64,000 nt of DNA from Bryobacteraceae bacterium (GCA_036272235.1 DATAZF010000327.1:16862-80861); one strand, 5' to 3'; shown: positions 38,595 through 55,900, counted from the first letter of the stretch. Translations and numbers: made by a program. Notes: generated by a model from the letters alone, not told the origin.

Positions 38595-39878
38595 CTATTC
38601 CTGACTACCTGATATGCCCAGCGCACTGGCCGTAAAAAGGTGGCCGGTGGGTTTCAAATACTGAATCGCGGGATCGGTTGTCGCGATCGATTTCACGTCA
38701 ACCGGTGGAAAGTTCTGATGATAAGTGGAATTCAGAAACGACAGAATGTCGTTGGCGATGAGAGCATGCCCTGTGCCTCCGGGGTAGATGCCATCCATGG
38801 AGTAGAACCCGCCGAAGTAATCGCCCGTGACGGTACCGGTGCCTGTGGATACACCCGACACCTTGACCTTATGCATGAAAGCGTTCAAATCGTAAACGAC
38901 CGCGCCGTTGGTCTTCGCGACGCTGATGATCTGCGCATTGAGAGCGTTGACGCGATTGGTGATATCCGCGGCGGTCGCCGCGCTCAAAGTCGAACCGGCT
39001 GGCAGGGCTCCAATGGCTCCGTTTGTGAACTGGGTTGAAATTTCAAGCAAGCCGTTGCGCGTCACATAATCCTGTGGCGTGAGGTGATACCCGGCGGTCA
39101 GAACGAATGGGACCGTTTGGACGATCGTTGACGCTGCCTGGACCGAATTGAAATATGCAGTATCGATCGGGTTCGGAATCGTCGTCGCGATGACTTGCGC
39201 CTGTAAGCCGCGCAGACCGGCGACAACGGTCCCGTACGTCGCGCCAAACGCCGCCGGATCCGGCATCCGGGTTGGATCGCCCGAGACGGCCGCATCAAGC
39301 GCTTCGTAATATCCGAGTTCGATCAGCGCCATTGTCGGGAACATGGACTTGGCATATTCAAACTGCGTCCAGAGCGGAACATTATTCAGGATCAGCTGCG
39401 GAAATCCGAGAAGCATGTTGAACACGGTCTGCTTCATATTCTTTTGCACCACAGGCGCTACCGGCCGCATGGAGATGCTGTCGTTCAAGGTGAGGCCCGG
39501 TACCGATGTGTTGAGCACGAAAAGGGGTGGAGTTTGAATTGGAGCCTTGGTTTTATCGGTAGGATAGTAAAATTGCCGAACGGAACCCTGGGGGTATTTT
39601 TGCATCTCGACTTCCTGACCCGGATAGCCGACCACATCGCCGATGCCTGGCGGCTCGATCAACGGCTGATTGAAGCCGGTGTTCATTGACGCTGCCATGC
39701 GCGACGGGAAACTCTGATTCTGCACCACACTGCTCAACCCGAAATTCGCCATTCCGGCGGCCAGCCCCTCGCCCATCACAACGAACGTCGTGGTGTCGAG
39801 CGTCTGGGCCTGGGCGCAATCCAGCCCGGCAACCGCTAAAGCCATTAAAGAGATATTGAAAACAATTTTCATTTTCAT
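38595..39878 (-). CDS. SGNH/GDSL-fold protein with substituted catalytic residues (probable pseudo-esterase)
   Basis: ATG 39878 (MKMKIVFNISLMALAVAG signal) lies 10 nt after the FadL-like stop. The four SGNH blocks are recognisable but altered: VVMGEGLAAG, NTSVPGLTLND, IELGYYEAL and MDGIYPGGTGHALIAN. Confidence 0.75.
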   Translation of the reverse strand: MKMKIVFNISLMALAVAGLDCAQAQTLDTTTFVVMGEGLAAGMANFGLSSVVQNQSFPSRMAASMNTGFNQPLIEPPGIGDVVGYPGQEVEMQKYPQGSVRQFYYPTDKTKAPIQTPPLFVLNTSVPGLTLNDSISMRPVAPVVQKNMKQTVFNMLLGFPQLILNNVPLWTQFEYAKSMFPTMALIELGYYEALDAAVSGDPTRMPDPAAFGATYGTVVAGLRGLQAQVIATTIPNPIDTAYFNSVQAASTIVQTVPFVLTAGYHLTPQDYVTRNGLLEISTQFTNGAIGALPAGSTLSAATAADITNRVNALNAQIISVAKTNGAVVYDLNAFMHKVKVSGVSTGTGTVTGDYFGGFYSMDGIYPGGTGHALIANDILSFLNSTYHQNFPPVDVKSIATTDPAIQYLKPTGHLFTASALGISGSQE

Positions 39879-39888: not shown

Positions 39889-41409
39889 CTAGTGCTTCTT
39901 TCCGATGAGGCCCGTGACGTCGAACCGCAGCGACAGCCCCGCGACGTGCGCGAAGTTGTGGTAGTCGCCGTTCGTCCACTGGTAATTATTGGCGGCGACA
40001 TTGGTCTGGCGATCCATGAACTTCATCGCTTCGTAGAAAAACGTCAGCTCTTTCTCGCCGACTTTTCTTGTCCCTCCCAGGGTGAAACTCTGGCGTGTGG
40101 AATCCGGGAACAACGGACCCACGCTCTTCTCGGGTACCGGCGATCCGTCGAAAAGATATCCCACGCGGACCGTCGTCTTGTCGTTGAGCGGGCGCTCGGC
40201 TCCCACCGCGATATCCCAGGATTCGCGGAAGTCAAACGTCAGTATTTTTTCGGCCGGCAAACCAATATTGGTCAGACCGACAGTATCTTCATTGATCGAG
40301 AAGTTCAGCGGCACGGTCTTGAACTTGCTATAGTCCTGCAGCCGTACGTCGACTGAGAAATTCGTCTTGAAGAATTTGGAATTCGAAAAGCCGATTCCGT
40401 AAGTAGCCGGGGTCGCGAACGAACCGGTGATCGCCTGATTTGGAAAGGCGTTCGGCAGAAAGTTTGGGCCGACGTATTGTTCGAGCGGGTAGGGCTGGTC
40501 ACCGAACGCGAACGACGCTCTCCCCGAAAGATGACTGACTACCGAACTGCGATACATCAAACCGATATTGGTCTTGGTCCGGTCATTCTTCCATAGCAGG
40601 CCAGCCGAGATTGCCGGCGCATTGGCGGTTCCTGCAATGCGGGAACGGCCTTCCGGCAGCAGCCTGGCGATAATCAAAGCCGCCTGGTTAACAGGCACTC
40701 CGGGAAATACCGTCGGCGCCGCCGTTCGTCCGAACTTCAAGCCGTCATCCTGCCCCAGCGGATTCAGAATGCTCTGTTCCAGCTCGAGGTGAGTATGAAC
40801 AAACGCCGGCCCTATAGCGATCGCAAGGTTGTCTTTAAGTTTGTACGCGAGCGTCGGCTGGAACCAGTATGATTCCAACCGCACCCGGGTTCCGGCGAAA
40901 CGCCCCACGAACTTCGTGAGATTGGGATCACCATCGTTGAAGTTCGTCGAGTTGGCGGAGAGTCCGAACGGAGTAAATGCCCCGAAGCCCACTGTCATTT
41001 TTTTGGATATTTGGGCCGTAGCATAAAGGCTGGCCAACGGAATGAAGTGCGGCTTGATGGATTGGGAATAACCGTTCGCAGGCACAACCTGCCCGGGCGG
41101 CGTCGACGAGGGTGTAAAACGGAACTCGCCGACGATCACGGTGCTATCCATCTGCATATGCATGCCGGGCTGGAAGGCGATGCCGGCGGGGTTGTAGAAG
41201 ATCGCCGACCCATCGTCGGCGGTGGCGATGAACGCCGTCCCCATTCCCGCCGCCCGCGCGCCCAACTCACTCACGGAAAAGGCCGAGCCGTAGCATAATC
41301 CCGCAGCCCCCAACAGGAGGCTCGCATACAGAAGGCAGGGCCGAAAAGGCCCTTTCAGAAACGGAAGATGAGAGCTGGATTGAAAATGATTGCTGGGTTG
41401 ATTCGTCAT
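39889..41409 (-). CDS. outer-membrane transport protein, OMPP1/FadL/TodX family
   Basis: The N-terminal hatch motif SVSELGARAAGMGTAFIATADDGSAIFYNPAGIA is typical of FadL. 506 aa with a beta-barrel-like alternating pattern. Confidence 0.85.
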   Translation of the reverse strand: MTNQPSNHFQSSSHLPFLKGPFRPCLLYASLLLGAAGLCYGSAFSVSELGARAAGMGTAFIATADDGSAIFYNPAGIAFQPGMHMQMDSTVIVGEFRFTPSSTPPGQVVPANGYSQSIKPHFIPLASLYATAQISKKMTVGFGAFTPFGLSANSTNFNDGDPNLTKFVGRFAGTRVRLESYWFQPTLAYKLKDNLAIAIGPAFVHTHLELEQSILNPLGQDDGLKFGRTAAPTVFPGVPVNQAALIIARLLPEGRSRIAGTANAPAISAGLLWKNDRTKTNIGLMYRSSVVSHLSGRASFAFGDQPYPLEQYVGPNFLPNAFPNQAITGSFATPATYGIGFSNSKFFKTNFSVDVRLQDYSKFKTVPLNFSINEDTVGLTNIGLPAEKILTFDFRESWDIAVGAERPLNDKTTVRVGYLFDGSPVPEKSVGPLFPDSTRQSFTLGGTRKVGEKELTFFYEAMKFMDRQTNVAANNYQWTNGDYHNFAHVAGLSLRFDVTGLIGKKH

Positions 41410-43393: not shown

Positions 43394-43476
43394 GGCCAGA
43401 CGCCGGTCGAGTTGAAACAAGAATAAGTTCTGAACCAACAAGTTTATTGACGAATTTGACAGGGAGGATTTTGAAA

Positions 43477-44256
43477 ATGAACGTTCTAAAGAATTGCACT
43501 ATTTGGGCCGCCGCCATGCTTGTCGCGGGCCTGCCCGTTTTAGCAAGCGCGCAAGGAAGAGACGAAGCGTTTGCCAAGAAGGCTCCTGTAGCCGCGCCGT
43601 CCGCTGTGGGCGCCTGGTTTGGAATTGCCAGGCCGTGCCCCGGCGATGCCGCCACCGACTCGCCCACGCACCTTGCTCTTTGTCAGGCCGTTTGCGGACT
43701 GTGCTCGAGCATTCCGGGCACCCTGCCACCCGAAGTTCCAATGATGCCGACAATGCTGGCTGACGGAACAGTGCTCGCGGACGACGCCGGCGAAATCAGC
43801 CGCTACCATACAACTGCGCACGGTAACTGGGCGGTTTCGAGCGACGACGGGCTTCCGGACTGGCAGGGTATGGCGCGCTATAGAGCAACGTTCTTCTGGC
43901 TGGGCTCGGCATTCGGCCCAGCGCAAGGCGGTTTCCCGGGGAGTCCGGTTTCGAGCGAGACCTACGGAACCTGCTGCTTCTCAAACAGCGTGCGGCCGCG
44001 CTTCGTGGCCTATTTCGATCCGGCCGATCCGGATCGCATGATCGGCTACATTCAACCGTATTTCTTCCCGTTCGTCGATACCAAGACCGGAGCCGTAAGT
44101 GTGGCGCCTTTCAATCCGGCCGATCCAAAGGCTGGTAACCATATCCCCGCTGCCCCGACAGATCCGCTCGGTGGAGCTCTGCCGGCCGGTTGCGACAACA
44201 GCAAGGGCTGCCTCGGGACATATCACTTTGTAATTCGCCGCATCAAGAATCAGTAG
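43477..44256 (+). CDS. Cys-rich secreted protein of unknown function
   Basis: ATG 43477 is preceded by AGGGAGG. Signal MNVLKNCTIWAAAMLVAGLPVLASAQ. Cys clusters: RPCPGD, LCQAVCGLC, GTCCF, GCDNSKGC. Confidence 0.7.
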   Translation: MNVLKNCTIWAAAMLVAGLPVLASAQGRDEAFAKKAPVAAPSAVGAWFGIARPCPGDAATDSPTHLALCQAVCGLCSSIPGTLPPEVPMMPTMLADGTVLADDAGEISRYHTTAHGNWAVSSDDGLPDWQGMARYRATFFWLGSAFGPAQGGFPGSPVSSETYGTCCFSNSVRPRFVAYFDPADPDRMIGYIQPYFFPFVDTKTGAVSVAPFNPADPKAGNHIPAAPTDPLGGALPAGCDNSKGCLGTYHFVIRRIKNQ

Positions 44257-44297: not shown

Positions 44298-44777
44298 ATG
44301 ACTGAGAAGGATTTTTTTTCCAGCACACATGGTCGCGAATGCTCGACGACCTATAACTTGTTGAAGGCTTTTCCGGAAGACAAGCTGGATATCAGGCCGA
44401 ATCCCAAGTCCCGCAGCGCACGGGAACTGGCTTTCGTCCTCGCCAATCAGGAGCTGTTCTTCAAACAGGCGGTGGATGGCGCCATCGATTTCTCTTTGTT
44501 CGCCAACCAGCCGCCCGGGACCATGGCGGAAATTATCGCGGTTCTCCACCAGAACCACCAGGCCGTTGAGGCTTCGCTGGCGAAAGCTTCGATGGACGAT
44601 CTCAACAAGACGATCAACTTCGGCGGACACGATATGCGGAGGTTAGACGCGCTTTGGGCTAATCAGTTCGATATCGTGCACCATCGCGGGCAGTTCTCCG
44701 TGTATCTTCGGCTTGCGAATGCAACTGTGCCGTCGATCTACGGGCCGACTGCCGATACGCAGGCCGCTGGCGCTTAA
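44298..44777 (+). CDS. DinB-family (four-helix bundle, metal-binding) protein
   Basis: 159 aa. The C-terminal HHRGQFSVYLR motif and the N-terminal helix pattern are typical of DinB/YfiT-like proteins. Confidence 0.75.
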   Translation: MTEKDFFSSTHGRECSTTYNLLKAFPEDKLDIRPNPKSRSARELAFVLANQELFFKQAVDGAIDFSLFANQPPGTMAEIIAVLHQNHQAVEASLAKASMDDLNKTINFGGHDMRRLDALWANQFDIVHHRGQFSVYLRLANATVPSIYGPTADTQAAGA

Positions 44778-44903: not shown

Positions 44904-45530
44904 ATGAGTCCTGCCCGGATGAAAGGCCCTGCGCTGCTTGCCCTTTTTGCGGCAGCTGCGTCAGCACAAAATCTACCCTGCTCTTTGAGCGCGGTCGGTG
45001 ACGACGTCCAGGTATTCGCCTGCTCCGGATTGAAAGCCCAAAGCGGCCAAATTCTTGAAATTTTGAACCGGATAGCCGCCGACAAGCTCGATCCGGCTTC
45101 TGTAATTGCGAAGCTGGCCGACTTGCCACGGGGCTCCGGCGCACGCTCGATCACGCTCACCGATACGCAGAAAACGAATCTCTTAACGCTGGCAAAAATG
45201 TACCCAGGTCAGAAAATCGCGATCGTGTATCCTCTAAACGATGCCGCGGCCGCGAAGACAGCGGTGGAGCTGACTTCCATTCTGTCGGAGGGCAAATGGT
45301 TGAACCCCGACGGTTCAGCAGTCGCTCACCCTTCCGAAGTTGCAGCTGAAAAGCCGTTCATCGGCATTGAGGTCTTGCTGAACAGCCATGATCTCGAAGA
45401 TCGGCAGCTTCCAAAAGCGGCGATTCCCCTCACTCTGACTCTTGAAGCGATGGGCTATGCCCGCCACCCCGCCTCTGCGGATGACATTCCACCCGGTACG
45501 ATCCGCCTCAAGGTCGGGACTCCGCCGTAG
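44904..45530 (+). CDS. secreted protein of unknown function
   Basis: Signal MKGPALLALFAAAASAQ. No recognisable motif. The 3' end overlaps the convergent gene by 23 nt. Confidence 0.6.
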   Translation: MSPARMKGPALLALFAAAASAQNLPCSLSAVGDDVQVFACSGLKAQSGQILEILNRIAADKLDPASVIAKLADLPRGSGARSITLTDTQKTNLLTLAKMYPGQKIAIVYPLNDAAAAKTAVELTSILSEGKWLNPDGSAVAHPSEVAAEKPFIGIEVLLNSHDLEDRQLPKAAIPLTLTLEAMGYARHPASADDIPPGTIRLKVGTPP

Positions 45531-45894
45531 ACGGCAGGTTCCGTTCCTTGAGGTAGTACGATCCGGTGATCACGATTCCCAGCCCCAGCACGCCGAGAAC
45601 GACGATGAAAAAGCTTTCTTTGGTGTAGAAGTAAAGACCAAGAATCAGGATCCACATGGGGATCCGCGCCATTAACGTCGTTCGATACAGCACCCGGTTC
45701 CCGTATTTGATGATGTTCATGACGATCACCGCGAGGCCAATCATCAGAATGCCTGAGAAGCGGACAAACGTCCCCGGATAATCGCGCGTCGCGAACGCCA
45801 GCCTGAGGAAAGTATGCGGCGCGAACATCAGTGCAAGGCCGGTAAGCGTGAGATACGAGGCAAGATAGAACAAGCTCCGCCGGGTTTTCGGCAT
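45508..45894 (-). CDS. small integral membrane protein (about 4 TM helices)
   Basis: ATG 45894 is preceded by AAGGAGG with a 5-nt spacer. Hydrophobic segments LFYLASYLTLTGLALMF, ILMIGLAVIVMNII, IPMWILILGLYFY and FFIVVLGVLGLGIVITG. Confidence 0.65.
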   Translation of the reverse strand: MPKTRRSLFYLASYLTLTGLALMFAPHTFLRLAFATRDYPGTFVRFSGILMIGLAVIVMNIIKYGNRVLYRTTLMARIPMWILILGLYFYTKESFFIVVLGVLGLGIVITGSYYLKERNLPSTAESRP

Positions 45895-45925: not shown

Positions 45926-47740
45926 TTAACGGCTCGATAGCCGCCGCAGCAGCAACAGCATCCAGACCGTCCACACACCCAGAAAGATGGCTGTGACCGC
46001 CGCAAACCACGGCGCTGTCTTCCACGAAGGCGGCCCGCCTGCCAGCGTCAGGAACAGAATGGAGGAAGCCCATACCGACGCCACGGCGAGCGCCTTTGCG
46101 CGAAGACCGTCGTCCCTCTCCGGAGGCGTTCCATTCGCGGCCCGCAGGCGCAATTCCCGGCGTTCGAATAGATCGAGCGCGCGCAACATCGCCGAGGGCC
46201 CCGTTTTCATCCAGATGGTCATGTCTGTGAGCATCGAAAGCGCCCCGGCGCGCGAGAAAATTTTCCGGCTGGCCTCATCGATGAGGTATTCTTCCACCAC
46301 TTCACGCAGCGAACGCGCGATGTCGAAGCCCGGCGACAACCGGGTGATCAGGCCGTCTGCCAGAAACGTTCCGCGGATGTACTTGATCATCTCCCGGTCG
46401 ACCAGCACGCCGTAATTGCGTGCCACCGACAGCATATCCAGCATGGCCGCCGTGACGGAGATGCGGAAGCGAACCTCACCGCCGATCGCGGGCTCCTGAT
46501 ACCAGTTGCGGGTCATGGATGTCAGCTCGCGGCGCATGCCTTCCAGATCCGCGCTCGCGGTGGGTGTGCAGATGTTCAGGAACTCCTTGTAAATCTCCTC
46601 GGGGCTGCCCGTCGAGTATGCAAGCGTAAGCTCGATCTGTTTCCGGCGCGCTTCGCGAGTGAGTGTGGCGACGATACCGAAGTCGACGTATCCGACGACA
46701 TTGTTTGGAAGGATCAGCAGGTTTGCAGGATGCAGGTCCGCGTGGAACGCCCCGAACTGGAAGGCGTCGCGCAGAAAGTTCGAGATGATGTTGGCGCTGA
46801 AGACCGCGGGCTCGAATCCTTCGGCCCGTAGTTTTTCGAGCTCGAGCTCGTCGCCGCGATCCACCATCTTCAGGTAGGTCGAAACCGTCGGACCATTCAG
46901 AAACTCCATGGTCAAGACACGGGAACACGAGAGGTCCCAGTAAATTCGCGGGATCCGCTCCGTCGGCGAACCTTCCGCGTTTCGCCCCAGTAAATCGCAA
47001 TACGCCGCCTCACGCCTGTAATCGAGCTCGTCCTTCGTCCAGGTTGACAACTCGCGCACGGGGTCGCGCATGAAGTACATGCTGCGGATGCGAAGCGCGA
47101 ATACGACCCAGATGAACCAGCGCATCAGCAGCACATCGCGGTGGAAGTCGTAATGCACGCCTGGGCGCTGTACTTTGACGGCCGCCTGCCTCCCGTCCTT
47201 CAGTACAGCCTTGTGGACTTGCCCAATCGACGCGGACGCAATCGCCTCGTAGTCGAATCGGTCGTATAACTCTTCGGGCAGCTTGCCGAACTCATGCCGG
47301 AAAACTGTCTCGACTTGTTGGCGGCTGGCGGTCGGAACGCGGTCCAGCAGGCCCAGCAGGGCGTCGCAGTATTCAATCGGCAGGGTATCCACCTGGAGGG
47401 ATAGGATCTGGCCGAATTTAATGAAGCTGCCGCCGACCTTTTCGAAGCCCTCGCGCAAAAGTTCCGGTCCGCCCAGTGGCTGGCCCTTCCAGCGGCGTTT
47501 TGCGAGCCTCCCCAGCTGCACCAGCAGAACTCGCAGGATCTGGAACAGCCGCTGAAAGTAATCGAAAAGAGGGTGCCGGGCGGTCACATTACCGTCACAA
47601 TCGGGCAAGGCTGGCGCAAAACCATTCGGAAAACGTCGTTGTCCCTTCGGTGAATCGCCACCCGCCAGTTCCGCGCGAGGCGAAAAGTCATTTCGATGTC
47701 TGGAAACGCACCCGTGTAACGGGAGGCGGTCCGGTAGCAA
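45926..47740 (-). CDS. ABC1/UbiB-family atypical kinase
   Basis: ASASIGQVHKAVLKDGRQAAVKVQRPG (Lys-containing nucleotide site), HADLHPANLL (catalytic loop) and C-terminal TM helices. The start is uncertain (TTG 47740, GTG 47587). Confidence 0.85.
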   Translation of the reverse strand: MLPDRLPLHGCVSRHRNDFSPRAELAGGDSPKGQRRFPNGFAPALPDCDGNVTARHPLFDYFQRLFQILRVLLVQLGRLAKRRWKGQPLGGPELLREGFEKVGGSFIKFGQILSLQVDTLPIEYCDALLGLLDRVPTASRQQVETVFRHEFGKLPEELYDRFDYEAIASASIGQVHKAVLKDGRQAAVKVQRPGVHYDFHRDVLLMRWFIWVVFALRIRSMYFMRDPVRELSTWTKDELDYRREAAYCDLLGRNAEGSPTERIPRIYWDLSCSRVLTMEFLNGPTVSTYLKMVDRGDELELEKLRAEGFEPAVFSANIISNFLRDAFQFGAFHADLHPANLLILPNNVVGYVDFGIVATLTREARRKQIELTLAYSTGSPEEIYKEFLNICTPTASADLEGMRRELTSMTRNWYQEPAIGGEVRFRISVTAAMLDMLSVARNYGVLVDREMIKYIRGTFLADGLITRLSPGFDIARSLREVVEEYLIDEASRKIFSRAGALSMLTDMTIWMKTGPSAMLRALDLFERRELRLRAANGTPPERDDGLRAKALAVASVWASSILFLTLAGGPPSWKTAPWFAAVTAIFLGVWTVWMLLLLRRLSSR

Positions 47741-47911
47741 ATAGTATAGACGCGAGATCGAGCCGGGAGACTAGTGAAAAAGGATTATGGACAGATTCGA
47801 GGCAGGGCGGCTTATCCTTTAAGCTACCTGTTTTGGACCGGATTGGCTTCTGCGGCGCGAAGCGCAACCGCTGGGTGACCCGGAGAAGTTGACCCGGATA
47901 AGAGCACGGCA

Positions 47912-47927
47912 CGCGGCTATAGCCGCG
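47912..47927. promoter_or_regulatory. perfect 16-bp palindrome CGCGGCTATAGCCGCG in the divergent promoter region
   Basis: Read directly. It lies ~60 nt upstream of the thioredoxin-like gene start and ~170 nt upstream of the UbiB-like ORF start. Confidence 0.3.
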
Positions 47928-47986
47928 CTTACCCGGGTTAAAGTCCGGCCATTGGTAAGCGACGTCGATTGAGGAGGCGGAAACTC

Positions 47987-48538
47987 TTGCAGAACTTAAG
48001 CGAACAACAAAAATTTGGGGAGGCCTTGCCCGACTTCTCTCTGCGCACCCTTGATGGGGAAACGGCCAATATCGGCTGGGTGCTTGGAAAGAAAAAGGGA
48101 GCGGTGATCGTGGTTTGGTCGAGCACCTGTTCCCATTGCATCCGCTATGACAAGTACTTCAACGGTTTCGGCGAACAATACCCCGACATCGGGTTGTTGA
48201 TCGTGTCCTCGCGGAACGGCGAAGAACTGGATGCGGTCCGGCGCGCTGCCGCGCAACGAAAACTGAAATTCCCGATCGTGCATGACCCCGCCAGCATCGT
48301 CGCCGGTGAATGGTTCACGCGGCAGACACCGCGGGCATTTCTGATCGACGCGAACGGCGCACTGCTTTATCGAGGCGCTGTCGATAACTATAAATACAGC
48401 GACGATCCCGAGTACGTTGCCTATCTTGATCCCGCTCTGGCGCAATTTCTGCAGGGCAAGCCTGTCGAGAAACAGGAGACCGCCAGCTACGGTTGCGCGA
48501 TTCAGTCGGTTTACTACACCCTTCCCAAGGCCCTATGA
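47987..48538 (+). CDS. thioredoxin-fold protein (TlpA/redoxin-like, CxxC)
   Basis: AVIVVWSSTCSHCIRYDKYF is a CxxC active site in redoxin context. GAGGAGG lies 9 nt upstream of TTG 47987, and the ORF-track TTG 47969 lies inside the RBS. There is no obvious signal peptide. Confidence 0.8.
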   Translation: MQNLSEQQKFGEALPDFSLRTLDGETANIGWVLGKKKGAVIVVWSSTCSHCIRYDKYFNGFGEQYPDIGLLIVSSRNGEELDAVRRAAAQRKLKFPIVHDPASIVAGEWFTRQTPRAFLIDANGALLYRGAVDNYKYSDDPEYVAYLDPALAQFLQGKPVEKQETASYGCAIQSVYYTLPKAL

Positions 48539-50886
48539 GCGGTAATTCGAATTCCCTTTTCAGTATTCCGTCGTTTATCGAGACCGGTCTGGTCATGATG
48601 CAGTCCGCCATGAAGACTGCGCAGCGGACCCTCGACGACCTCACCGGCCACAATCACGACATTAAAGGCGCACCTGTTGACGGACCAGCCGACGTGGACC
48701 TGGCGGTTGCCGATTTCGCCAACCGGCTGACCCGCGTGGCGCGCTATTCGCCGATGGAACTTTCGCAACTGGGAACAGCCTCGGGCGAAGTATTGTCCGC
48801 CGCGAAAGCCTCTTTCCGGAATCTCAGCATGACCGATCCCCGGAATGTCGCGCTTCCCATGCAGCTGGCGTTATCGTTTGCGACCCTGATGACGGAATCG
48901 GCACTGCGCGGCCTCGTCACGCTTGACGTGGTCGGTCCGGCGCGGCTGCCGCGTTTGGTCTCAGACTTCTTCGAGATGTTCACCGAGACGCCGGTCTTCG
49001 CGGGACTCGAGTACGGCGAACTGATCGATAAATGTGAGAAGCGCCTCGAAACCCATCCTGAGGACTATCGGGTGCGTCTTGAGCTGGCGCGGGTCCTCTC
49101 CAAGTGCGGGCGATACGAAGATGCCGACATTGAATTCAAGAAAATTCCGGCAAGCGCCTCGCAGTATGCTGTTTCCCGGCATGAGGCAGGCGTTGCGCTT
49201 TTTCGGGCTGGCCGTTATCTGCAGGCCTCCCACGCGGAAGTCGATGCGCTGAACGCGGATTCGACAGATCAGCGCTCGCGCAACGTTCTGTTTCTTTCCG
49301 CGGACAAACTCGGGGGATATCCCGCTTTCGTTCCCGAAGCCTTCCGGATGACGATCAAAGCCGGTTTTGCCACACCGACGGTGAAATTCGAAGACATTGC
49401 CGCCAGAATCGGCCTCGACAAAACCAGCGGCGGCCGCGGCAGCGCGATCTTCGATTACGATAACGACGGTTATCTGGATATTCTTATCGGCGCCGCGTAT
49501 GGCGGCACAAACCTTTATCACAATAACGGCGACGGCACTTTCACCGACGTCTCGATCGATTCCGGCCTCGATATCTCCGTCAATACGTTCGGCACGGTAG
49601 CGGGCGATTACGATAACGACGGTTTCACCGATCTTTACCTGACCCGGCAGGGCTTCTATGTTGGGGAAGGGCAACTCTTCCGCAACAACGGCGACGGCAC
49701 CTTCACCGATGTCACCGAGGCGGCGGGCCTGAAGGATGTCTGGGGACCGGCGTTTACCGCCTCCTGGATCGACTACGACAACGACGGTTTCCTCGATCTG
49801 TTCGTCGCCAATAATCTCGGCGGCCTTTTCGAGCGCAAAACGCCAAATCGCCTGTTTCACAACAATGGCGACGGCACGTTTACCGACATCACGGGAAAGG
49901 CCGGCATCGATACAATCTGGCCCACCATCGGCGGCGCCTGGGGCGATTACGACAACGACGGCTTTATGGACCTGTTCCTGAGCAACGGGCTCGGCCGCTC
50001 GCAATTGTTCCACAACAACGGTGACGGCACATTTACCGATGTCAGCGAACGCGCCGGCGTCACCGCCATGGGCTTCGGCAGCCCGGCCTTCTGGTGGGAT
50101 TATGACAACGATGGCTGGATGGATATCGGCCAGTTCATCTGGTCGGACCACGACGATGTGATCCACACGTTGCGCACAGGCGATGGGCCTCCCAACGGCC
50201 AACCGATGCGCGTTTATCGGAACAACCGTGACGGCACGTTCACGCAGGTCAACCGCGAGATTGGATTGACCGGGTGCTGGGGCACCATGAGCGGCAGTTT
50301 CGGCGATTTCAATAACGACGGTTATATGGATCTGGTTCTGGGCAACGGCAGCCCCAAGCTGGACCGGCTCGATCCGCTGGTCCTGCTGGAGAGTGACGGC
50401 AGGAAGTTCCGCAACACTACTTTCGCCGCGGGACTGCCCTTTACCGGCAAGAGCCACGGCGCAAATCTGGGCGACCTGTTCGGCGACGGACGGCTTTCGG
50501 TGATCGTCGCGGCCGGCGGCGCCTATCCGGGCGACTTGCTCACAACCAGTGTCTACTGCCCGACCACGTTGCCCGGCAATTACCTGAATGTTCGGCTGGT
50601 GGGCGTGAAGAGTAACCGGTCGGCCATCGGCGCTCGCGTCGTGCTGAGCGCCGGGGGGCAGAAACAGACCCGCGAAGTAACCGGTGGATCCAATTTCGGC
50701 TGCATGCCGCTGGAGCAGCACTTCGGTCTGGGGACGCTGGACAAGATGGAAGCGTTGGAAGTTCGCTGGCCGAGTGGATTAAAGCAGCGCTTCACGGGAC
50801 TTCCGATCAACAAGACCTGCGAATTCACCGAGGGTTCTCCGGACTGGAAAGACGTCTACGGCAAGAAGGCCCACAAAGACGCCTGA
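48535..50886 (+). CDS. CRTAC1-family protein: TPR-like N-terminus, FG-GAP/VCBS repeats, ASPIC/UnbV C-terminal domain
   Basis: Five repeats of the type (Y/F)(H/R)NNGDGTFTDV...G plus DYDNDG(F/Y/W) calcium-loop motifs. The C-terminus SNRSAIGARVVLSAGGQKQTREVTGGSNFGCMPLEQHFGLG...LEVRWPSG is the ASPIC/UnbV signature. ATG 48535 overlaps the upstream stop (ATGA). Confidence 0.85.
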   Translation: MSGNSNSLFSIPSFIETGLVMMQSAMKTAQRTLDDLTGHNHDIKGAPVDGPADVDLAVADFANRLTRVARYSPMELSQLGTASGEVLSAAKASFRNLSMTDPRNVALPMQLALSFATLMTESALRGLVTLDVVGPARLPRLVSDFFEMFTETPVFAGLEYGELIDKCEKRLETHPEDYRVRLELARVLSKCGRYEDADIEFKKIPASASQYAVSRHEAGVALFRAGRYLQASHAEVDALNADSTDQRSRNVLFLSADKLGGYPAFVPEAFRMTIKAGFATPTVKFEDIAARIGLDKTSGGRGSAIFDYDNDGYLDILIGAAYGGTNLYHNNGDGTFTDVSIDSGLDISVNTFGTVAGDYDNDGFTDLYLTRQGFYVGEGQLFRNNGDGTFTDVTEAAGLKDVWGPAFTASWIDYDNDGFLDLFVANNLGGLFERKTPNRLFHNNGDGTFTDITGKAGIDTIWPTIGGAWGDYDNDGFMDLFLSNGLGRSQLFHNNGDGTFTDVSERAGVTAMGFGSPAFWWDYDNDGWMDIGQFIWSDHDDVIHTLRTGDGPPNGQPMRVYRNNRDGTFTQVNREIGLTGCWGTMSGSFGDFNNDGYMDLVLGNGSPKLDRLDPLVLLESDGRKFRNTTFAAGLPFTGKSHGANLGDLFGDGRLSVIVAAGGAYPGDLLTTSVYCPTTLPGNYLNVRLVGVKSNRSAIGARVVLSAGGQKQTREVTGGSNFGCMPLEQHFGLGTLDKMEALEVRWPSGLKQRFTGLPINKTCEFTEGSPDWKDVYGKKAHKDA

Positions 50887-51082
50887 AACAAGGCATGTAT
50901 TACACCGGCCGATTTCTTTGCAAGCTGCAAAGAACGTCGCATTAGATTGGCAATCCGCCTGGTCTGCCAGGCGAAATTGAAGAGATGACGGCAAAGGGTG
51001 CGGCTCAAGAGTGCCTTCGCTCTGATCCCGCCCGGCCCGCCCTCCGACGATATACTGGCTGGGGAATTGAGAGACGGCAATC

Positions 51083-52504
51083 ATGCGAAAATTCACGAGC
51101 ACACTTTTCAGTTTCGTTCTCGCATCCGTAATCTACACGGTGCAGCAGGTAGCAAAGAAAGCCGGCGCTCCAGGACCGATGGTGGATCCGAAGAATCCTC
51201 CCGCCCCCGGCCCCGAAGGGCTCCCGCCCGCCGGCGCTACCGCCTACCTTTACAGGAAGACCAAAAAAACCATGGAGCGCTTCGGCGACCCGGCGGCTGT
51301 TTTGTTCATCATCGGCGATGAGTATCAGTCGAAGGTCGTGGATCTGTTCTTCGACATTCTCACGCTCAATCCGCGCTACTGGGCGAAGCTTCCCCGCCAT
51401 ATCGCGCAGCAGGGTTCGCTTGCCTATGCGGCGGCCGGCCCGCAACGGGAACTCTATATGCAGCAGGCGAAGAATACCCGCTACATTTTCACTCTGGTCC
51501 GCAATAATCCCGAGAAGCTTGGCATCCCGAAGAACGGCGAATTCGACCTCGCCACATTCATGGGCCGCGCATATGGCGTGGGTGACTTCGAAAATATCTG
51601 GACTGTCGAAGGCCTCGGCCACGTTTATTCGCAGCGAATGTGGCATCTCAAATGGAATATGAGCGAGGATGCGCACGACATCCTGATCGAGGGCCAGGCG
51701 GCCTCCATGCCCGAGAAGTCGCTCACCATGATGCACGCCGGTCTCGGCCTCGCTGTCGCCGAATCGCTGATGAAGCAGTTGACACCCGACAGCCGCATCA
51801 AAGAGGTTGAGCGCGTCCTCAAAGTTTTCATCAAAATATGCAACAACAACTCGCGTCCAGGGTACGTCGGTTGCGCGCTCGAATCCCTCGGTCTCGTGAC
51901 ACGTTGCTTCAACTATCCGATGGTCGATCTGGTGCAAAGCGTTCTGGCTAATCTGGACCCGGTCGCATGGGAGTTCTTCTGGCGCGGCGCCGGCAGGGCG
52001 CTCTATTTTTCGCCCGCCCACATGGCCCAACCTTTATATTCCCCGTGGATTGCGGCGGAACAGGAAGCGCCAAACGCGCGCGCCCATAAGATCCTCAAAG
52101 CGGGTATTTCCTGGCCGACAAACATAGTTAATATGCGGTCACCGGAAATTTTCGAAGATTTAATTCGCCGCCGCGGCCTTGCCGAGGAGAGTGAGGGTAC
52201 GATAGCGCACGGTGTTGCGGCATCGACGACGATGGCGATTGACATCACACCTGACCATCCGGTAGTTAAGTCCTACCTTGAATACACGCCGAGAAGCTCC
52301 GACCCGACAGTGCACCGGTTGTGGGACAAACTTGTTCGGAGTCAGGTATATAACTCAGTTCATCGCTACCAGCCGGTGCTCCGCGCGCACGGCATGATGG
52401 ATCAGGTTTTCCGCCTGCAGGACCTCGAAGCCCTCGTCGACCGGCTCGATCCCCCAGCGCGCAAAACCGAACAAACCTTCGAAGGCGTGCAATCGGGACG
52501 ATAA
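51083..52504 (+). CDS. unknown-function protein, tandem paralogue 1 (possibly DUF1702-like repeat core)
   Basis: 473 aa. N-terminal hydrophobic helix, PKNPPAPGP linker, and a core with spaced motifs VEGLGHVYSQ, MMHAGLGLAVAE, GCALESLGLVTR, WRGAGRALYFSP and HGVAASTTMA. Confidence 0.8.
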   Translation: MRKFTSTLFSFVLASVIYTVQQVAKKAGAPGPMVDPKNPPAPGPEGLPPAGATAYLYRKTKKTMERFGDPAAVLFIIGDEYQSKVVDLFFDILTLNPRYWAKLPRHIAQQGSLAYAAAGPQRELYMQQAKNTRYIFTLVRNNPEKLGIPKNGEFDLATFMGRAYGVGDFENIWTVEGLGHVYSQRMWHLKWNMSEDAHDILIEGQAASMPEKSLTMMHAGLGLAVAESLMKQLTPDSRIKEVERVLKVFIKICNNNSRPGYVGCALESLGLVTRCFNYPMVDLVQSVLANLDPVAWEFFWRGAGRALYFSPAHMAQPLYSPWIAAEQEAPNARAHKILKAGISWPTNIVNMRSPEIFEDLIRRRGLAEESEGTIAHGVAASTTMAIDITPDHPVVKSYLEYTPRSSDPTVHRLWDKLVRSQVYNSVHRYQPVLRAHGMMDQVFRLQDLEALVDRLDPPARKTEQTFEGVQSGR

Positions 52505-52593
52505 CTGTTTCCCTCTTGAGTGGCGCTCAAAATCAGGCTAGACTGATGCCTCAAGGCAATTTAGCTCACGAAAGGTATTTGGAGGGGACAGCT

Positions 52594-54069
52594 ATGCGTG
52601 ATGTTGCAAGTTCTGTAATCAGTTACATGTTGGCGCAGGGACTTTACACGGGGCAGCAGATGGCAAAGATGTCGGGCGTCTCGAAGACCCTGGTCAACCC
52701 CAAGAATCCGCCCGCGCCCGGTCCGAACGGTGAAGACCCACGGACGTTTTCGGGATACCTGTACAAGAAGACCAAACAAACGGTCGAAAAATTCGGCGAC
52801 CCCGCGGCCGTGGTATTTATCGCCGGCGATGAATACCAGAACAAAGCCGTGGATTTCGTTTTCGATCTGCTGACCCCGACGAAGACCCTGAATCCCGGTT
52901 TCTGGTTGAAGTGGAGCGACCATGTCCTGACGCAGGGATTGCTCGCGGCCGACGCCACCATCGGCAAGCAGGAAGCTCTTTACTCGCAGCAGGCGAAGAA
53001 TACCCGCTATATCTTCACCCTGGTCCGCAACAACCCCGAGAAAATCGGTATTCCGAAGACGGGTCCGGTCGACCTTTCGATCTTCATGGATAAGGCGTAC
53101 GGCATCGGCGATTTCGAAAACATCTGGTCGGTGGAAGGTCTCGGGCACGTCTACTCGCAGCGCGTCTGGAAAGACAAGTGGAACTGCAGCGAAGATGCCC
53201 ACGACATCATGATGGAAGGGCAAGCCGGCGATATAAACCTCATGCCGGAGAAGTCGTACACGATGATGCACGCCGGGCTCGGGCTTGCTCTGGCGGAATC
53301 GCTGATGAAGCAGCTGAATCCGGACAGCAGCGTGCGCGAAGTGGAGCGCGTGCTCAAGGTCTTCATCAAACTCTGCAAAAACAATTCGCGGCCGGGGTAT
53401 GTGGGATGCGCGCTCGAGTCGCTCGGCCTTGTCACCCGCTGTTTCAATTTCCCGATGGTGCCGCTGGTGCAGAGCGTCCTTTCCGATCTCGATCCGATTT
53501 CGTGGGAGTTCTTCTATCGCGGCGCCGGCCGGGCGCTCTATTTCTCGCCGGGTCACATGGTGCAGCCGCTCTACTCGCCGTGGATCGCGGCCGAGCAGGA
53601 AGCACCCAATGATCGGGCCTGGAACATCCTGAAAGCCGGCATTGCGTGGCCGAGCAGCATTGTGAATATGCAGGAGCCGGAAATCTACGAAGATCTGATC
53701 CGCCGCCGTGGCGCCGAGGAAGAAAAGCACGGCACGATCAAACACGGCGTTGCCGCCTCCACCACCATGGCTTGCGACATTACTCCGGGTCATCCGCTGG
53801 TCAAGGAATACATCAAGTACGTTCCCAAGAGCAGCGATCCCAAAGTGCGTGAGCTCTGGACGAAACTGGTCCACGAGCCGGCGTACAAAGCGATGCATCG
53901 CTATCAGCCGCTCTTCAAAGCCCACGGCATGCTGGACCAGGTGTTCCGGTTCCAGGATCTCGACGCCCTGGCCGACAAGCTGGAAGCCTCATCGGGCGAG
54001 GAAGATGCCCGCGAAGTGGCGCATCCGGCAGGCAGGACGAGCCGGAAGCATCACGCAACCAAGAACTAA
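52594..54069 (+). CDS. unknown-function protein, tandem paralogue 2
   Basis: ATG 52594 is preceded by GGAGGGG with a 6-nt spacer. It is collinear with paralogue 1 from MR..S..L.....Y..QQ.AK through the C-terminus, and most core residues are identical by eye. Confidence 0.8.
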   Translation: MRDVASSVISYMLAQGLYTGQQMAKMSGVSKTLVNPKNPPAPGPNGEDPRTFSGYLYKKTKQTVEKFGDPAAVVFIAGDEYQNKAVDFVFDLLTPTKTLNPGFWLKWSDHVLTQGLLAADATIGKQEALYSQQAKNTRYIFTLVRNNPEKIGIPKTGPVDLSIFMDKAYGIGDFENIWSVEGLGHVYSQRVWKDKWNCSEDAHDIMMEGQAGDINLMPEKSYTMMHAGLGLALAESLMKQLNPDSSVREVERVLKVFIKLCKNNSRPGYVGCALESLGLVTRCFNFPMVPLVQSVLSDLDPISWEFFYRGAGRALYFSPGHMVQPLYSPWIAAEQEAPNDRAWNILKAGIAWPSSIVNMQEPEIYEDLIRRRGAEEEKHGTIKHGVAASTTMACDITPGHPLVKEYIKYVPKSSDPKVRELWTKLVHEPAYKAMHRYQPLFKAHGMLDQVFRFQDLDALADKLEASSGEEDAREVAHPAGRTSRKHHATKN

Positions 54070-54092
54070 ACGTCCTCAGTCGGATTCGAATC

Positions 54093-54127
54093 AGCGGCGT
54101 CTGCAATCGCGGACGCCGCTTTTCGTC
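54093..54127 (+). terminator. intrinsic terminator after tandem paralogue 2
   Basis: AGCGGCGTC-tgcaatcgcg-GACGCCGCT (9-bp GC-rich stem) followed by TTTCGTCG. Confidence 0.65.
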
Positions 54128-54144
54128 GTAATGGAGCGCTCTTC

Positions 54145-54537
54145 ATGAAAACCATCAAACAGACTGAATACTTTCCCTCGGCCACCCCGAAGCAGATATA
54201 CGATGCCTTTCTCGACGGCAAAAAGCACTCCGATATGACCGGCGGAAAGGCCACCGCCGAGGCCCATGTCGGCGGCAAATTTACGGCATGGGACGGCTAT
54301 ATTTCCGGAACCAATCTGGAACTCGACGAAGGCAAGCGAATCGTCCAGACCTGGACGACGAGCGAGTGGCCGGAGGGCGCCGAGCCGTCCCATCTTGAAT
54401 GGACCTTTATCGCCAGGGAACGCGGCACCGAGGTAACGATGGTGCACTCGCACGTGCCCGATTCCCAGACGGAATCCTATCGGACCGGGTGGGTCGACTA
54501 CTACTGGACCCCCATGAAAGCCTACTTCTCAAAGTAG
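54145..54537 (+). CDS. SRPBCC-superfamily (Aha1/AHSA1-like) protein
   Basis: 130 aa. The pattern PKQIYDAFLDGKKHSDMTGGKATAEAHVGGKFTAWDGYISG...LELDEGKRIVQTW is typical of Aha1-domain SRPBCC proteins. GGAG RBS. Confidence 0.8.
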   Translation: MKTIKQTEYFPSATPKQIYDAFLDGKKHSDMTGGKATAEAHVGGKFTAWDGYISGTNLELDEGKRIVQTWTTSEWPEGAEPSHLEWTFIARERGTEVTMVHSHVPDSQTESYRTGWVDYYWTPMKAYFSK

Positions 54538-54554
54538 CGCCCCGCGCCGGGCGC
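54537..54554. terminator. GC hairpin between convergent SRPBCC and nrdR genes (possible bidirectional terminator)
   Basis: GCGCCC-cgcgcc-GGGCGC. There is no clear U-tract on either strand. Confidence 0.25.
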
Positions 54555-54564
54555 CCGAACAAAT

Positions 54565-55029
54565 TCAGACGGGTGGAAGCTGGCGCGTCAAGCTGCGCAA
54601 TTCGTTGAGGAATGCCTGCTCATCCTGAAAATCCCGGTAAACGGAGGCGAACCGCACGTAGGCGATCTTGTCCACCCCGCGCAGGCTGTCCATCAGATAC
54701 TCGCCGATTTCGGTAGTAGTGATTTCCCGGTCGGGCGAATCGGTCACGCGCGCTTCTACCTGATTGACGAGATCCGAGAGTTTCCCCATGCTGATGGGGC
54801 GTTTTTCGCAGGCTTTCAGCAGTCCGTTCAACACCTTCTGGCGATCGAACTTCTCGCGGCGTCCGTCTTTCTTGACGACCATGTACGGTACTTCGTCGAT
54901 ACGCTCATATGTGGTGAACCGCTTCTCGCAGCCCAGGCACTGCCGCCGCCGGCGAATGGAATCGCCTTCCCGGCTTTCCCTGGAATCGATCACGCGGTCT
55001 TCGATATGCCCACAAAAGGGACAGGTCAT
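54565..55029 (-). CDS. nrdR: transcriptional repressor NrdR
   Basis: MTCPFCGHIEDRVIDSRESREGDSIRRRRQCLGCEKRFTTYE is the zinc ribbon. It is followed by an ATP-cone. Confidence 0.95.
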   Translation of the reverse strand: MTCPFCGHIEDRVIDSRESREGDSIRRRRQCLGCEKRFTTYERIDEVPYMVVKKDGRREKFDRQKVLNGLLKACEKRPISMGKLSDLVNQVEARVTDSPDREITTTEIGEYLMDSLRGVDKIAYVRFASVYRDFQDEQAFLNELRSLTRQLPPV

Positions 55030-55130
55030 AGTGGCGCCATCATCGGAAGTCCTTTAGAATGCAAGCATAACAGGTGGAGCGAGCATTTCGGCCGGGAAGA
55101 GTGGTTTTGCGCACGATTAGCTGAAAGATT

Positions 55131-55155
55131 GAACCTATCATAGGGAAGCCTCGTT
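55131..55155 (+). promoter_or_regulatory. candidate ECF-type autoregulated promoter (GAACC-N16-CGTT)
   Basis: GAACC at 55131-55135, a 16-nt spacer, then CGTT at 55152-55155, 27 nt upstream of the ECF sigma ATG. It resembles the generic ECF -35 GGAAC / -10 CGT pattern. Confidence 0.3.
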
Positions 55156-55181
55156 CCTTCTATCGGAAGGATCCACGAGCA

Positions 55182-55853: not shown

Positions 55854-55900
55854 TGGGCGGGGTTATTGTGAAGTGCACGCCGTGAAGAGTTGAAGAACCG

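Follow-up and report, generated by a model that had tools for sequence, protein, structure and literature searches.

The four genes at positions 47987-54127 of the window (the whole 64,000-nucleotide stretch of Bryobacteraceae DNA that was analysed) may represent the Bryobacteraceae version of an undescribed gene neighbourhood that is centred on an ABC1/UbiB-family kinase and serves to process a hydrophobic metabolite, either a lipid or a compound resembling one. This reading, to which we assign a probability of roughly 45%, is an argument from guilt by association. The cassette encodes a CxxC redoxin, a CRTAC1-family protein and two tandem paralogues. The paralogues belong to a family, here called FAM, that is described in no database, and the most frequent partner of FAM genes is the ABC1/UbiB-family kinase and not CRTAC1 or the redoxin.

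Organisation of the four-gene cassette

Reading the ORFs of the window yields the following layout, with all four genes on the plus strand:

47987..48538, plus strand: redoxin, a TlpA/ResA-like thioredoxin-fold CxxC protein of 183 amino acids (Pfam, CSHC motif, public gene call P0270)
48535..50886, plus strand: CRTAC1-family protein of 783 amino acids (Pfam, AlphaFold model of residues 1-300, match to PDB 9etn)
51083..52504, plus strand: FAM paralogue A, 473 amino acids (AlphaFold, U155-domain HMM E = 2e-11)
52594..54069, plus strand: FAM paralogue B, 491 amino acids (BLASTP, GGAGG just upstream of its ATG, U155-domain HMM E = 2e-12)
54093..54127, plus strand: intrinsic terminator, its G+C-rich stem of 12 bp closed by a loop of 4 nt and followed by a U-tract (sequence and fold)

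The redoxin ORF opens with a TTG at 47969 and contains an in-frame TTG at 47987 with AGGAGG upstream; the latter start is the one used by the public gene calls, and P0270 (183 amino acids) is 100% identical. The TGA stop codon of the redoxin gene (48536-48538) overlaps the ATG of the CRTAC1-like gene at 48535 in the sequence cTATGAg, which confirms the ATGA overlap of the original prediction, while 196 nt separate the CRTAC1-like gene from paralogue A. The strong terminator that had been proposed to close the run is also present: its hairpin (54093-54120) is followed by UUUUCG and folds with -31 kcal/mol (z = -4.2), a stability that none of 200 shuffled sequences reached. It was found by sequence reading and folding and was missed by a simple terminator scanner.

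None of the four proteins contains a segment with a 19-residue Kyte-Doolittle mean of at least 1.6, in agreement with the predicted lack of classic signal peptides, and a borderline N-terminal helix (1.37) is found in paralogue A only. A cytoplasmic location of the cassette proteins is predicted from this hydropathy scan. None of the four matches a PADLOC defence model, and the neighbouring ABC1 protein gives only weak, generic kinase-domain matches there. The window sequence was found in soil-metagenome DNA runs only.

The redoxin is recognised by the Pfam models Redoxin (46.4 bits, cut-off 26.6) and AhpC-TSA (43.8 bits, cut-off 26), and the C-S-H-C of its motif WSSTCSHC is kept in homologues. 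With the TlpA/ResA/DsbE thiol-disulfide oxidoreductases it shares the thioredoxin fold, the CxxC motif and the genetic coupling to a single partner gene. Different from these proteins, it stays below all NCBIfam cut-offs (ResA 48.8 vs. 170, StoA 27.3 vs. 210, DsbE 20.6 vs. 359), its partner is a CRTAC1 propeller instead of a cytochrome-maturation or copper-chaperone protein, and hydropathy reveals no hydrophobic segment that could serve as an export signal or membrane anchor, whether the N-terminus is read as MRRRKLLQNLSEQQKF or from a start at LQNLSEQ.

The CRTAC1-like protein has a low-confidence helical region (residues 1-158), a TPR-like region (approximately residues 160-270), an FG-GAP propeller and a C-terminal UnbV_ASPIC domain; the N-terminal structure is taken from an AlphaFold model of residues 1-300. 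Pfam detects five FG-GAP_3 stretches (160.5 bits), a weak TPR match and UnbV_ASPIC (59.2 bits, cut-off 23.4) at residues 711-776 of the 797-residue ORF, and the translation contains five DYDNDG motifs and one DFNNDG motif. Residues 283-490 match the solved human CRTAC1 (PDB 9etn, E = 1.3e-19), and the likeness to the vertebrate protein comprises the aligned propeller region and the C-terminal ASPIC/UnbV domain. In contrast to vertebrate CRTAC1, the bacterial protein carries an additional helical/TPR N-terminal region of approximately 290 residues and shows neither a signal or transmembrane segment by hydropathy nor an EGF-domain match.

Vertebrate CRTAC1 is secreted, many bacterial CRTAC1-family proteins are exported, and propellers with calcium-type DYDNDG motifs are more usual outside the cell. 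The CRTAC1 genes of Pyrinomonadaceae-type loci encode an N-terminal membrane anchor, and the thioredoxin genes of more distant loci (Trx177) encode lipoprotein-type signals. These features of linked genes in other lineages, together with the five DYDNDG motifs, speak against a cytoplasmic placement.

The redoxin-CRTAC1 pair is present in every relative that was looked up, mostly with a 4-bp overlap, which recurs in at least eight other pairs; for more distant redoxin homologues, a CRTAC1 gene came next in all three cases looked up. The two proteins could act as a pair that is kept in fixed proportion by translational coupling; the role of the CxxC protein would be to maintain the CRTAC1 propeller, or the ligand of the propeller, in the reduced state.

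The FAM paralogues and their conserved residues

Paralogues A and B are 69% identical over 464 residues (BLASTP), and the original description as two tandem same-strand paralogues thus holds. Both proteins are soluble and all-alpha, and their family is new: neither Pfam nor NCBIfam nor the PDB sequences contain a match, and a Foldseek search of the paralogue A model (pLDDT 86.7, pTM 0.88, 22 helices) against the PDB returned nothing with E < 0.1. The view that the paralogues cannot be placed in a characterised family is therefore upheld by both sequence and structure searches. FAM comprises 721 clusters at 50% identity, most of them in Acidobacteriota, and it is kept at approximately 70% identity across many Bryobacteraceae contigs.

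FAM proteins consist of an N-terminal helical domain, U155 (approximately residues 1-120), and a core of approximately 330 residues. U155 is also found by itself, as a small protein, and other proteins encoded in FAM neighbourhoods carry it N-terminally; its HMM matches 81 FAM proteins, 37 stand-alone proteins, 12 members of a GDSL-like family of 923 residues (GDSL923) and six U431 proteins. It may be a shared docking module.

The family-wide invariant residues (W173, E176, H218, E267, R274, W300, H301, R305 and N350) lie in glycine-rich helices. In the subfamily of the window, Arg replaces H301, a change that counts against a simple, conserved site for catalysis or metal binding. Conserved Cys and His residues had been predicted for the paralogues, and this applies within the close subfamily but not to the whole family: over 117 members, H218 is kept in 91%, C253 in 63%, C264 in 10% and C275 in 11%. 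The cysteines are lineage-specific, and of this Cys/His set only H218 is conserved family-wide.

These numbers bear on the role originally proposed for the cassette, a self-contained redox-dependent modification or binding system in which the CxxC redoxin, the Ca-binding propeller and the Cys/His paralogues act on each other or on a common target. The translational coupling and constant pairing of redoxin and CRTAC1 agree with it, as do the closeness of the pair to FAM (no more than 10 kb apart in seven of ten close loci) and the position of Trx177, which occurs in 15 loci, is adjacent to ten FAM genes and directly follows FAM in more distant clusters. However, the redox argument for the paralogues fails because their cysteines are not conserved across the family, and most FAM loci contain neither partner: 55 of 80 have no CRTAC1 gene within 10 kb (25 have one), and a thioredoxin-fold gene is near FAM in only about 20 loci. 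Redoxin-CRTAC1 pairs also exist without a nearby FAM gene (L083, L085), and the proposal leaves out the ABC1 kinase, the stronger partner. We consider such a system improbable.

Conservation of the neighbourhood

The FAM cassette is surrounded by the following genes:

45926..47740, minus strand: ABC1/UbiB-family atypical kinase, divergent from the redoxin gene (Pfam ABC1 199.9 bits, cut-off 22.9)
45508..45894, minus strand: small four-helix membrane protein of approximately 128 amino acids, directly downstream of ABC1 (ORF, hydropathy peaks)
44298..44777, plus strand: DinB-superfamily protein (Pfam DinB_2 and DinB)
43447..44256, plus strand: secreted Cys-rich protein of cluster c28 (ORF, signal-like N-terminus)
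39889..41409, minus strand: FadL/TodX-type outer-membrane channel for hydrophobic compounds (Pfam Toluene_X 134.3 bits)
38595..39878, minus strand: secreted protein resembling the N-terminal half of GDSL923 (tblastn; signal-peptide-like N-terminus MKMKIVFNISLMALAVAGLDCAQA)
36534..38588, minus strand: secreted protein resembling the C-terminal half of GDSL923 (tblastn; signal-peptide-like N-terminus)
54145..54537, plus strand: small AHSA1/SRPBCC (START-like) protein just past the terminator (Pfam AHSA1 70.1 bits)

The kinase has two C-terminal transmembrane helices with hydropathy peaks at residues 550 and 580. The small membrane protein has no Pfam match, and a 125-residue gene occupies the same position after ABC1 in the closest relative, L080. 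The FadL gene is the first of a three-gene minus-strand run, and FadL together with the two-gene block adjoins redoxin-CRTAC1 in L080, L084 and L085. Searching the window by tblastn with GDSL923 members aligned up to 1076 residues at 36% identity; an in-frame TAG separates 36534..38588 from the upstream gene, and the same split is found in those three loci. The AHSA1 gene is syntenic in L080, with homologues near FAM in L026, L032, L040 and L042. The c28 protein matches no Pfam or NCBIfam model; its homologues (L020, L040, L073) recur near FAM and FadL genes, and DinB_2 genes recur in 16 related loci.

Neighbours were counted after we had called the ORFs ourselves and clustered them by BLAST. 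The genome scan started from the motif WHG[VA]GR..YF, and since this motif is absent from the window subfamily, the closest relatives are under-sampled. In 57 of 78 loci (73%) FAM has an ABC1 gene no more than 10 kb away, and in 42 loci the distance is at most 1 kb. Among the identified neighbours on the same strand ABC1 is the most common, adjoining 33 of the 120 FAM genes. Among the lipid-related neighbours are an SDR-acyltransferase fusion (33 loci) and patatins (19 loci, plus 12 with a cNMP-binding domain). GDSL923 (22 loci) and a CrtI-like FAD oxidase (21 loci) follow, and ketosynthase pairs with an ACP, an HMG-CoA-reductase-like protein, RPE65, FadL, acyl-AMP ligase and START-like genes recur as well.

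The gene order of the window is found again in independent metagenome contigs, and ABC1 divergent from a redoxin-CRTAC1-...-FAM run is common to the window, L080, L086 and L087. The neighbourhood survey was thus positive for the predicted linkage, which recurs in related soil Acidobacteria. The claim of a four-gene cassette stands as far as this linkage is concerned, but the boundaries do not: ABC1, FadL, GDSL-like, DinB and AHSA1 genes recur too, and therefore the unit extends beyond the four genes and suggests a role in the handling of lipids, not a redox machine that is complete in itself.

Alternatively, two or three independent modules (ABC1 with the small membrane protein, redoxin with CRTAC1, and the FAM paralogues) could lie side by side and be held together by lineage-specific synteny. 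The 196-nt gap upstream of paralogue A would fit this arrangement, as would the separate occurrence of the parts: two of the ten close loci (L081, L088) contain FAM without ABC1, redoxin or CRTAC1, a third (L001) lacks the pair and retains ABC1, and the two pairs mentioned above have no FAM gene. Yet the association crosses classes and phyla and survives rearranged gene orders, which inherited synteny alone would not lead one to expect, and the 73% of FAM loci with ABC1 contrast with a few percent of random 20-kb stretches, a rough estimate. We regard independent modules without a shared pathway as rather unlikely.

Possible role in lipid handling

The reading we prefer, a kinase-centred lipid neighbourhood, has two known parallels. 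UbiB/Coq8 proteins function in prenyl-lipid handling, with UbiJ and Coq proteins as lipid-binding partners. As in the ubiE-ubiJ-ubiB operon, or for Coq8 with Coq9/Coq10, the gene for a membrane-anchored ABC1 kinase stands beside genes for small soluble helical or START-like proteins (FAM, AHSA1) in a neighbourhood dealing with hydrophobic molecules. In contrast to this system, the window kinase is not a UbiB equivalog (TIGR01982 253 vs. a cut-off of 487.55 bits; NF003404 190 vs. 667), no ubiquinone-pathway genes occur among the annotated neighbours, and FAM lacks any sequence or fold match to solved proteins and hence to a solved Coq or Ubi partner.

Plastoglobules and cyanoglobules, on which ABC1 kinases sit together with lipid and redox enzymes (PMC12923008, PMC8956952), provide the second parallel. 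Related loci likewise combine ABC1 with FAD oxidoreductases, SDRs, hydrolases, acyltransferase-type enzymes and an RPE65-type carotenoid-cleavage oxygenase, although the link here is known from gene neighbourhood and not from proteomics. We know of no plastoglobule-type droplets in Acidobacteria.

[quoted passage not shown] The FadL channel, the secreted GDSL-like pair and the START-like AHSA1 protein would move or trim the same compound. Against a lipid reading, no lipid enzyme can be recognised among the four cassette genes, L081 and L088 contain FAM by itself, and the U431, U242, patatin and acyltransferase genes of fuller clusters are absent from the window.

The UnbV_ASPIC domain raises a further alternative. 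In enediyne gene clusters UnbV is accompanied by UnbL and UnbU, and the cassette could be an analogous module that tailors a secondary metabolite of the polyene or polyyne type, with FAM as UnbL and CRTAC1 as UnbV. The FG-GAP propeller is shared with that cassette, the FAM core is similar in size to UnbL, and related loci contain fatty-acid or polyketide-type genes (an ACP, two ketosynthases, an HMG-CoA-reductase-like gene, a CrtI-like desaturase, RPE65) and a halogenase/lycopene-cyclase-like flavoprotein. However, the two paralogues and 41 diverse FAM members gave no match to DUF1702 (PF08012), which we take to be the Pfam family of UnbL, or to any other Pfam model, even at E values up to 10. 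No ketosynthase occurs anywhere in the window and no PKS among the neighbours scanned, and the ketosynthases of related loci are discrete FabF-like proteins, not the iterative enediyne PKS. A PKSE or UnbU signal is likewise missing, the hosts are Acidobacteria instead of actinomycetes, and literature searches yielded nothing on UnbV function. A tailoring role of this kind thus appears doubtful. In line with the original assessment, no described pathway was found to match the combination of genes.

A broader and more speculative version of the lipid reading, which we regard as unlikely in its full extent, is that FAM, U155, one or two ABC1 kinases, U431, U242 and GDSL923 constitute an unrecognised lipid-body or lipid-trafficking machinery, mainly of Acidobacteriota and also represented in Planctomycetota, Latescibacterota, Zixibacteria, Nitrospinota and Verrucomicrobiota, and a non-photosynthetic counterpart of the plastoglobule ABC1-kinase networks. 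The window cassette would be its Bryobacteraceae derivative and FAM a new fold that binds or transforms a lipid. None of the three families U431, U242 and GDSL923 is represented by a model in a database.

ABC1/UbiB kinases are ancient and widespread, and to our knowledge the roles of the bacterial proteins are largely unknown outside ubiquinone synthesis and plastoglobules. With FAM they now gain a fixed partner at the genetic level, a large and strongly conserved family whose fold is predicted with confidence and which has no database entry, together with a defined set of co-located lipid genes. For bacterial CRTAC1 proteins, a CxxC partner of their own and a genomic setting can now be named, and the sources searched recorded less than this. 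The carriers are abundant soil Acidobacteria, and because the unusual membrane lipids of these bacteria serve as palaeoclimate proxies, a new lipid-handling locus in Acidobacteriota would also be of practical interest.

The redoxin-CRTAC1 pair and the surrounding genes

The four genes that the original prediction had grouped into a cassette are present as open reading frames on the + strand. They consist of a redoxin gene, a CRTAC1-like gene and two paralogues, A and B, whose all-alpha protein family is termed FAM here.

Genes and features at the locus (window positions)
Left border: sigma-70 gene and ThrRS
36534-41409: FadL gene and a GDSL-like protein in two secreted halves
43447-44777: c28 (a recurrent secreted protein) and DinB gene
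45508-45894, - strand: small membrane protein with four hydrophobic helices, next gene downstream of ABC1; no Pfam match
45926-47740, - strand: ABC1 gene, divergent from the redoxin gene; ABC1 199.9 bits, below the UbiB cut-off; two C-terminal membrane helices
47987-48538, + strand: redoxin
48535-50886, + strand: CRTAC1-like gene
51083-52504, + strand: paralogue A
52594-54069, + strand: paralogue B
54093-54127: terminator
After the terminator: AHSA1/START-like gene
Right border: NrdR and ECF-sigma/LiaF-like block

The redoxin is a thioredoxin-fold protein (Pfam Redoxin, 46.4 bits; AhpC-TSA, 43.8 bits) with the motif WSSTCSHC. Its reading frame contains a first TTG at 47969 and a second in-frame TTG at 47987; the latter is preceded by AGGAGG and is used by public gene calls, which yields a protein of 183 amino acids that is identical to the public gene call P0270. 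In Pfam, the CRTAC1-like protein has five FG-GAP_3 stretches and a weak TPR match, with a UnbV_ASPIC domain at its C-terminus, and its propeller matches the solved human CRTAC1 (9etn) with E = 1.3e-19. As predicted, the two genes share an ATGA overlap, in which the redoxin TGA (48536-48538) overlaps the CRTAC1 ATG at 48535. The same 4-bp overlap is found in the related loci L002, L004 (twice), L080, L082, L085 (first pair), L086 and L087 (twice), and twice on the P0116 contig. A CRTAC1 gene also follows each of three redoxin homologues (59-75% identity). Redoxin and CRTAC1 are a tight pair.

The linkage on which the cassette depends is conserved in relatives, because this pair lies within 10 kb of a close FAM homologue in seven of ten loci (L002/P0116, L003, L004, L080, L082, L086 and L087), the exceptions being L001, L081 and L088. 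The gene order of the window, including the divergent upstream ABC1 gene, is exactly reproduced in L087 and L080. That the genes are independent modules and mere neighbours is an unlikely reading; in its favor, the search for expression found the locus sequence only in DNA runs from soil metagenomes.

Pyrinomonadaceae-type loci combine a CRTAC1 protein that has an N-terminal membrane anchor with a thioredoxin that has a lipoprotein signal, while both proteins of the window type lack any signal. FAM-linked CRTAC1 proteins are of two kinds: the first (L006-L018, L033, L067, L071, L077 and L078) is membrane-anchored and partnered with the lipoprotein thioredoxin, and the second, found in the window, is partnered with the signal-less redoxin and begins with a conserved helical/TPR extension some 290 residues long. 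In an AlphaFold model of CRTAC1 residues 1-300, confidence was limited to the TPR-like part (160-270). A relationship of this N-terminus to the U155 domain of FAM was rejected (hhalign probability 0.2%), and CRTAC1 matches on annotated plasmids were uninformative. A simple hydropathy scan of the four cassette proteins revealed no transmembrane or signal-like segment, which agrees with the predicted lack of a classic signal peptide; the hydrophobic N-terminal helix ascribed to both paralogues is only borderline and limited to paralogue A.

FAM and the U155 domain

Both paralogous genes were found as predicted and their products are 69% identical. With E-values of up to 10 allowed, neither matched a model in Pfam or NCBIfam. 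In a 90%-clustered protein database, FAM has 317 relatives, all without a Pfam domain and many sharing about 70% identity with the window protein; every named one is called 'hypothetical', and the named ones are mostly from Bryobacteraceae. When 1.84 billion cluster representatives were searched with a profile, 721 clusters were retrieved at E up to 0.001, including 268 at E up to 1e-30. Screening one genome per species gave 198 relatives, from which 77 loci were kept. These belong chiefly to many classes of Acidobacteriota, with a minority in Planctomycetota, Latescibacterota, Zixibacteria, Nitrospinota and Chthoniobacterales. No FAM homologue was found among annotated plasmids. One homologue from the representative search (P0172, 570 aa) is fused C-terminally to Endoribonuclease L-PSP (RidA/YjgF; E = 4.9e-18).

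FAM is a protein family new to the databases searched. The redoxin, CRTAC1 and ABC1 genes add members to families that are already known. Neither Pfam nor NCBIfam has a model for FAM or for four neighbour protein families, U155, U431, U242 and a GDSL-like protein of some 923 aa (GDSL923). U431 and U242 had no significant match in either collection, and GDSL923 and U155 gave sub-threshold Pfam matches only.

The AlphaFold model of paralogue A is all-alpha (22 helices) and confident (pLDDT 86.7, pTM 0.88). Foldseek against the PDB gave no match with E below 0.1, the output being helical-repeat noise of TM-score 0.26 or less, and sequence profiles of the PDB likewise produced nothing at E below 0.1. 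Internal repeats, suspected from a periodic [E/H]-x-x-G motif, were rejected by profile self-comparison. A link to UnbL/DUF1702 of the enediyne cassette was rejected at the HMM level, as Pfam searches (E up to 10) with both paralogues and 41 diverse members returned scattered noise.

Comparison of 117 members showed these residues to be invariant or nearly so: W173, E176, G177, G179, H218, G220, G222, E267, G270, R274, W300, H301, G302, G304, R305, Y308, F309, G341, W344, N350, P354, G377, W414 and F443. The conserved cysteines claimed for the paralogues are not a family trait, since they reach only 63%, 10% and 11% across the family. This lack of conservation, together with a looser tie of FAM to CRTAC1, speaks against the original view that the cassette is a self-contained redox system, which we consider quite improbable. 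At H301, a position that is His in 93% of the family, the window subfamily has Arg (codon 301 at 51983-51985 in A and 53494-53496 in B), so that WHGxGR becomes WRGAGR, as also in L001-L004; the subfamily also has His at the position that is Asn376 in most members. A conserved site is remodelled in this subfamily.

FAM residues 1 to about 120 are a separate module, the U155 domain (51083-51440 and 52594-52960), which is helical and has the consensus MRELTKSMLSFSWAMSLFGAQQ...AFDAVTRAAEEQLGESLRSTFRAGDRLQRGMVD. Small stand-alone proteins from related loci were used to build an HMM, which matched the N-termini of 81 FAM proteins and also 37 stand-alone, 12 large GDSL-like and 6 U431 proteins. One of the U155 genes is L052:9335-9802. 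The domain may serve these proteins as a shared module for docking or targeting.

ABC1 kinases and other FAM partners

For a survey of FAM neighbours, ORFs were called in 79 fetched loci and the window, and the proteins were clustered and annotated with Pfam. The commonest FAM partner is an ABC1/UbiB-family kinase, a point overlooked in the original prediction. It was detected by tblastn in 55 of 79 loci and by clustering in 59 loci (57 of the 78 in which ORF calling also gave a FAM gene), and in 42 loci its distance from a FAM gene is at most 1 kb. Among identified same-strand neighbours it ranks first, located beside 33 of 120 FAM genes, and it often occurs in two copies. In L002 (9597-11144) and L086 (570-2138), ABC1 adjoins another protein, some 515-520 aa long, which clusters with it by BLAST and for which no Pfam match is recorded; this protein is perhaps an ABC1 paralogue that has degenerated.

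Other partners are U431 (51 loci), an SDR-acyltransferase fusion (33), stand-alone U155 (31), U242 (30), CRTAC1 (25), GDSL923 (22), a CrtI-like FAD oxidase (21), patatin (19), DinB_2 (16), a thioredoxin-fold lipoprotein (15) and a cNMP-binding patatin (12). Ketosynthase pairs with ACP, HMG-CoA-reductase-like proteins, a halogenase/lycopene-cyclase-like flavoprotein, RPE65, FadL, acyl-AMP ligase and GMC oxidoreductase also occur. A typical Pyrinomonadaceae-type order is FAD oxidase, CRTAC1, CRTAC1, SDR-acyltransferase, ABC1, U155, FAM, thioredoxin, ABC1, U242/U431, patatin and GDSL-like. A large conserved cluster (L006-L018, L048, L069, L071 and L075-L079) is present in Pyrinomonadaceae, Thermoanaerobaculia, Vicinamibacteria and other groups; it runs ACP, KS, KS, HMG-CoA-reductase-like, CrtI-like FAD oxidase, CRTAC1 (one or two copies), SDR-acyltransferase, ABC1, U155, FAM, thioredoxin lipoprotein, ABC1, U242, U431 (several copies), patatin and GDSL923, often followed by the halogenase-like flavoprotein, RPE65 and DinB_2. 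The KS, ACP and CrtI-like genes of related loci and the UnbV domain of CRTAC1 would suit an enediyne-like polyene-tailoring role, yet DUF1702, PKS and UnbU signals were looked for and not found, which makes this role rather doubtful.

In the window, GDSL923 of other phyla corresponds to two adjacent genes (36534-39878, - strand) with an in-frame TAG between them (38595-38597). The reading of this TAG as a pseudogene was rejected, because each half begins with a signal peptide and L080, L084 and L085 have the same split. Some fused GDSL-like versions in other phyla have U155 at the N-terminus and no signal peptide there, which raises the question of their final location. L080 also encodes a 125-aa protein at the position equivalent to the small four-helix protein of the window.

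The predicted terminator was confirmed as a 12-bp G+C-rich hairpin with a U-tract (-31 kcal/mol, z = -4.2). The right flank (54565-58951) contains NrdR (- strand), ECF sigma, a zf-HC2 anti-sigma, a LiaF-like membrane protein and LiaF-TM/toastrack (DUF4097), and looks like an envelope-stress module. A defence system was rejected, as PADLOC gave no matches; Rfam had no riboswitch or leader RNA match within 45000-55500, and the two intergenic regions of the locus contain no inverted repeats.

A possible role in lipid handling

A limited literature search found no description of this neighbourhood, and publications on UnbV, the enediyne cassette, bacterial CRTAC1 and elb clusters offered no functional lead for the cassette genes. 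UbiB/Coq8 proteins act with lipid-binding partners. ABC1 kinases are also found on plastoglobules and cyanoglobules (PMC12923008, PMC8956952). By analogy, we tentatively propose, with a probability of about 0.45, that the cassette is one lineage's form of a system centred on an ABC1 kinase and dealing with a hydrophobic lipid or lipid-like metabolite. In this scheme FAM, soluble or peripheral, would partner the membrane-bound kinase, a binding or catalytic pocket may be formed by the conserved polar residues that FAM has in glycine-rich helices, and U155 would serve as a docking module common to several proteins. Redoxin and CRTAC1 would be produced at a fixed ratio, with redoxin servicing CRTAC1 or its ligand, while FadL, the GDSL-like pair and AHSA1 might transport or trim the same hydrophobic compound. 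Against this proposal, FAM sometimes occurs alone, it is odd for a calcium-type propeller to lack an export signal, and H301R argues against a simple conserved active site. The function of the locus is a prediction, but the locus itself is real, conserved and testable.
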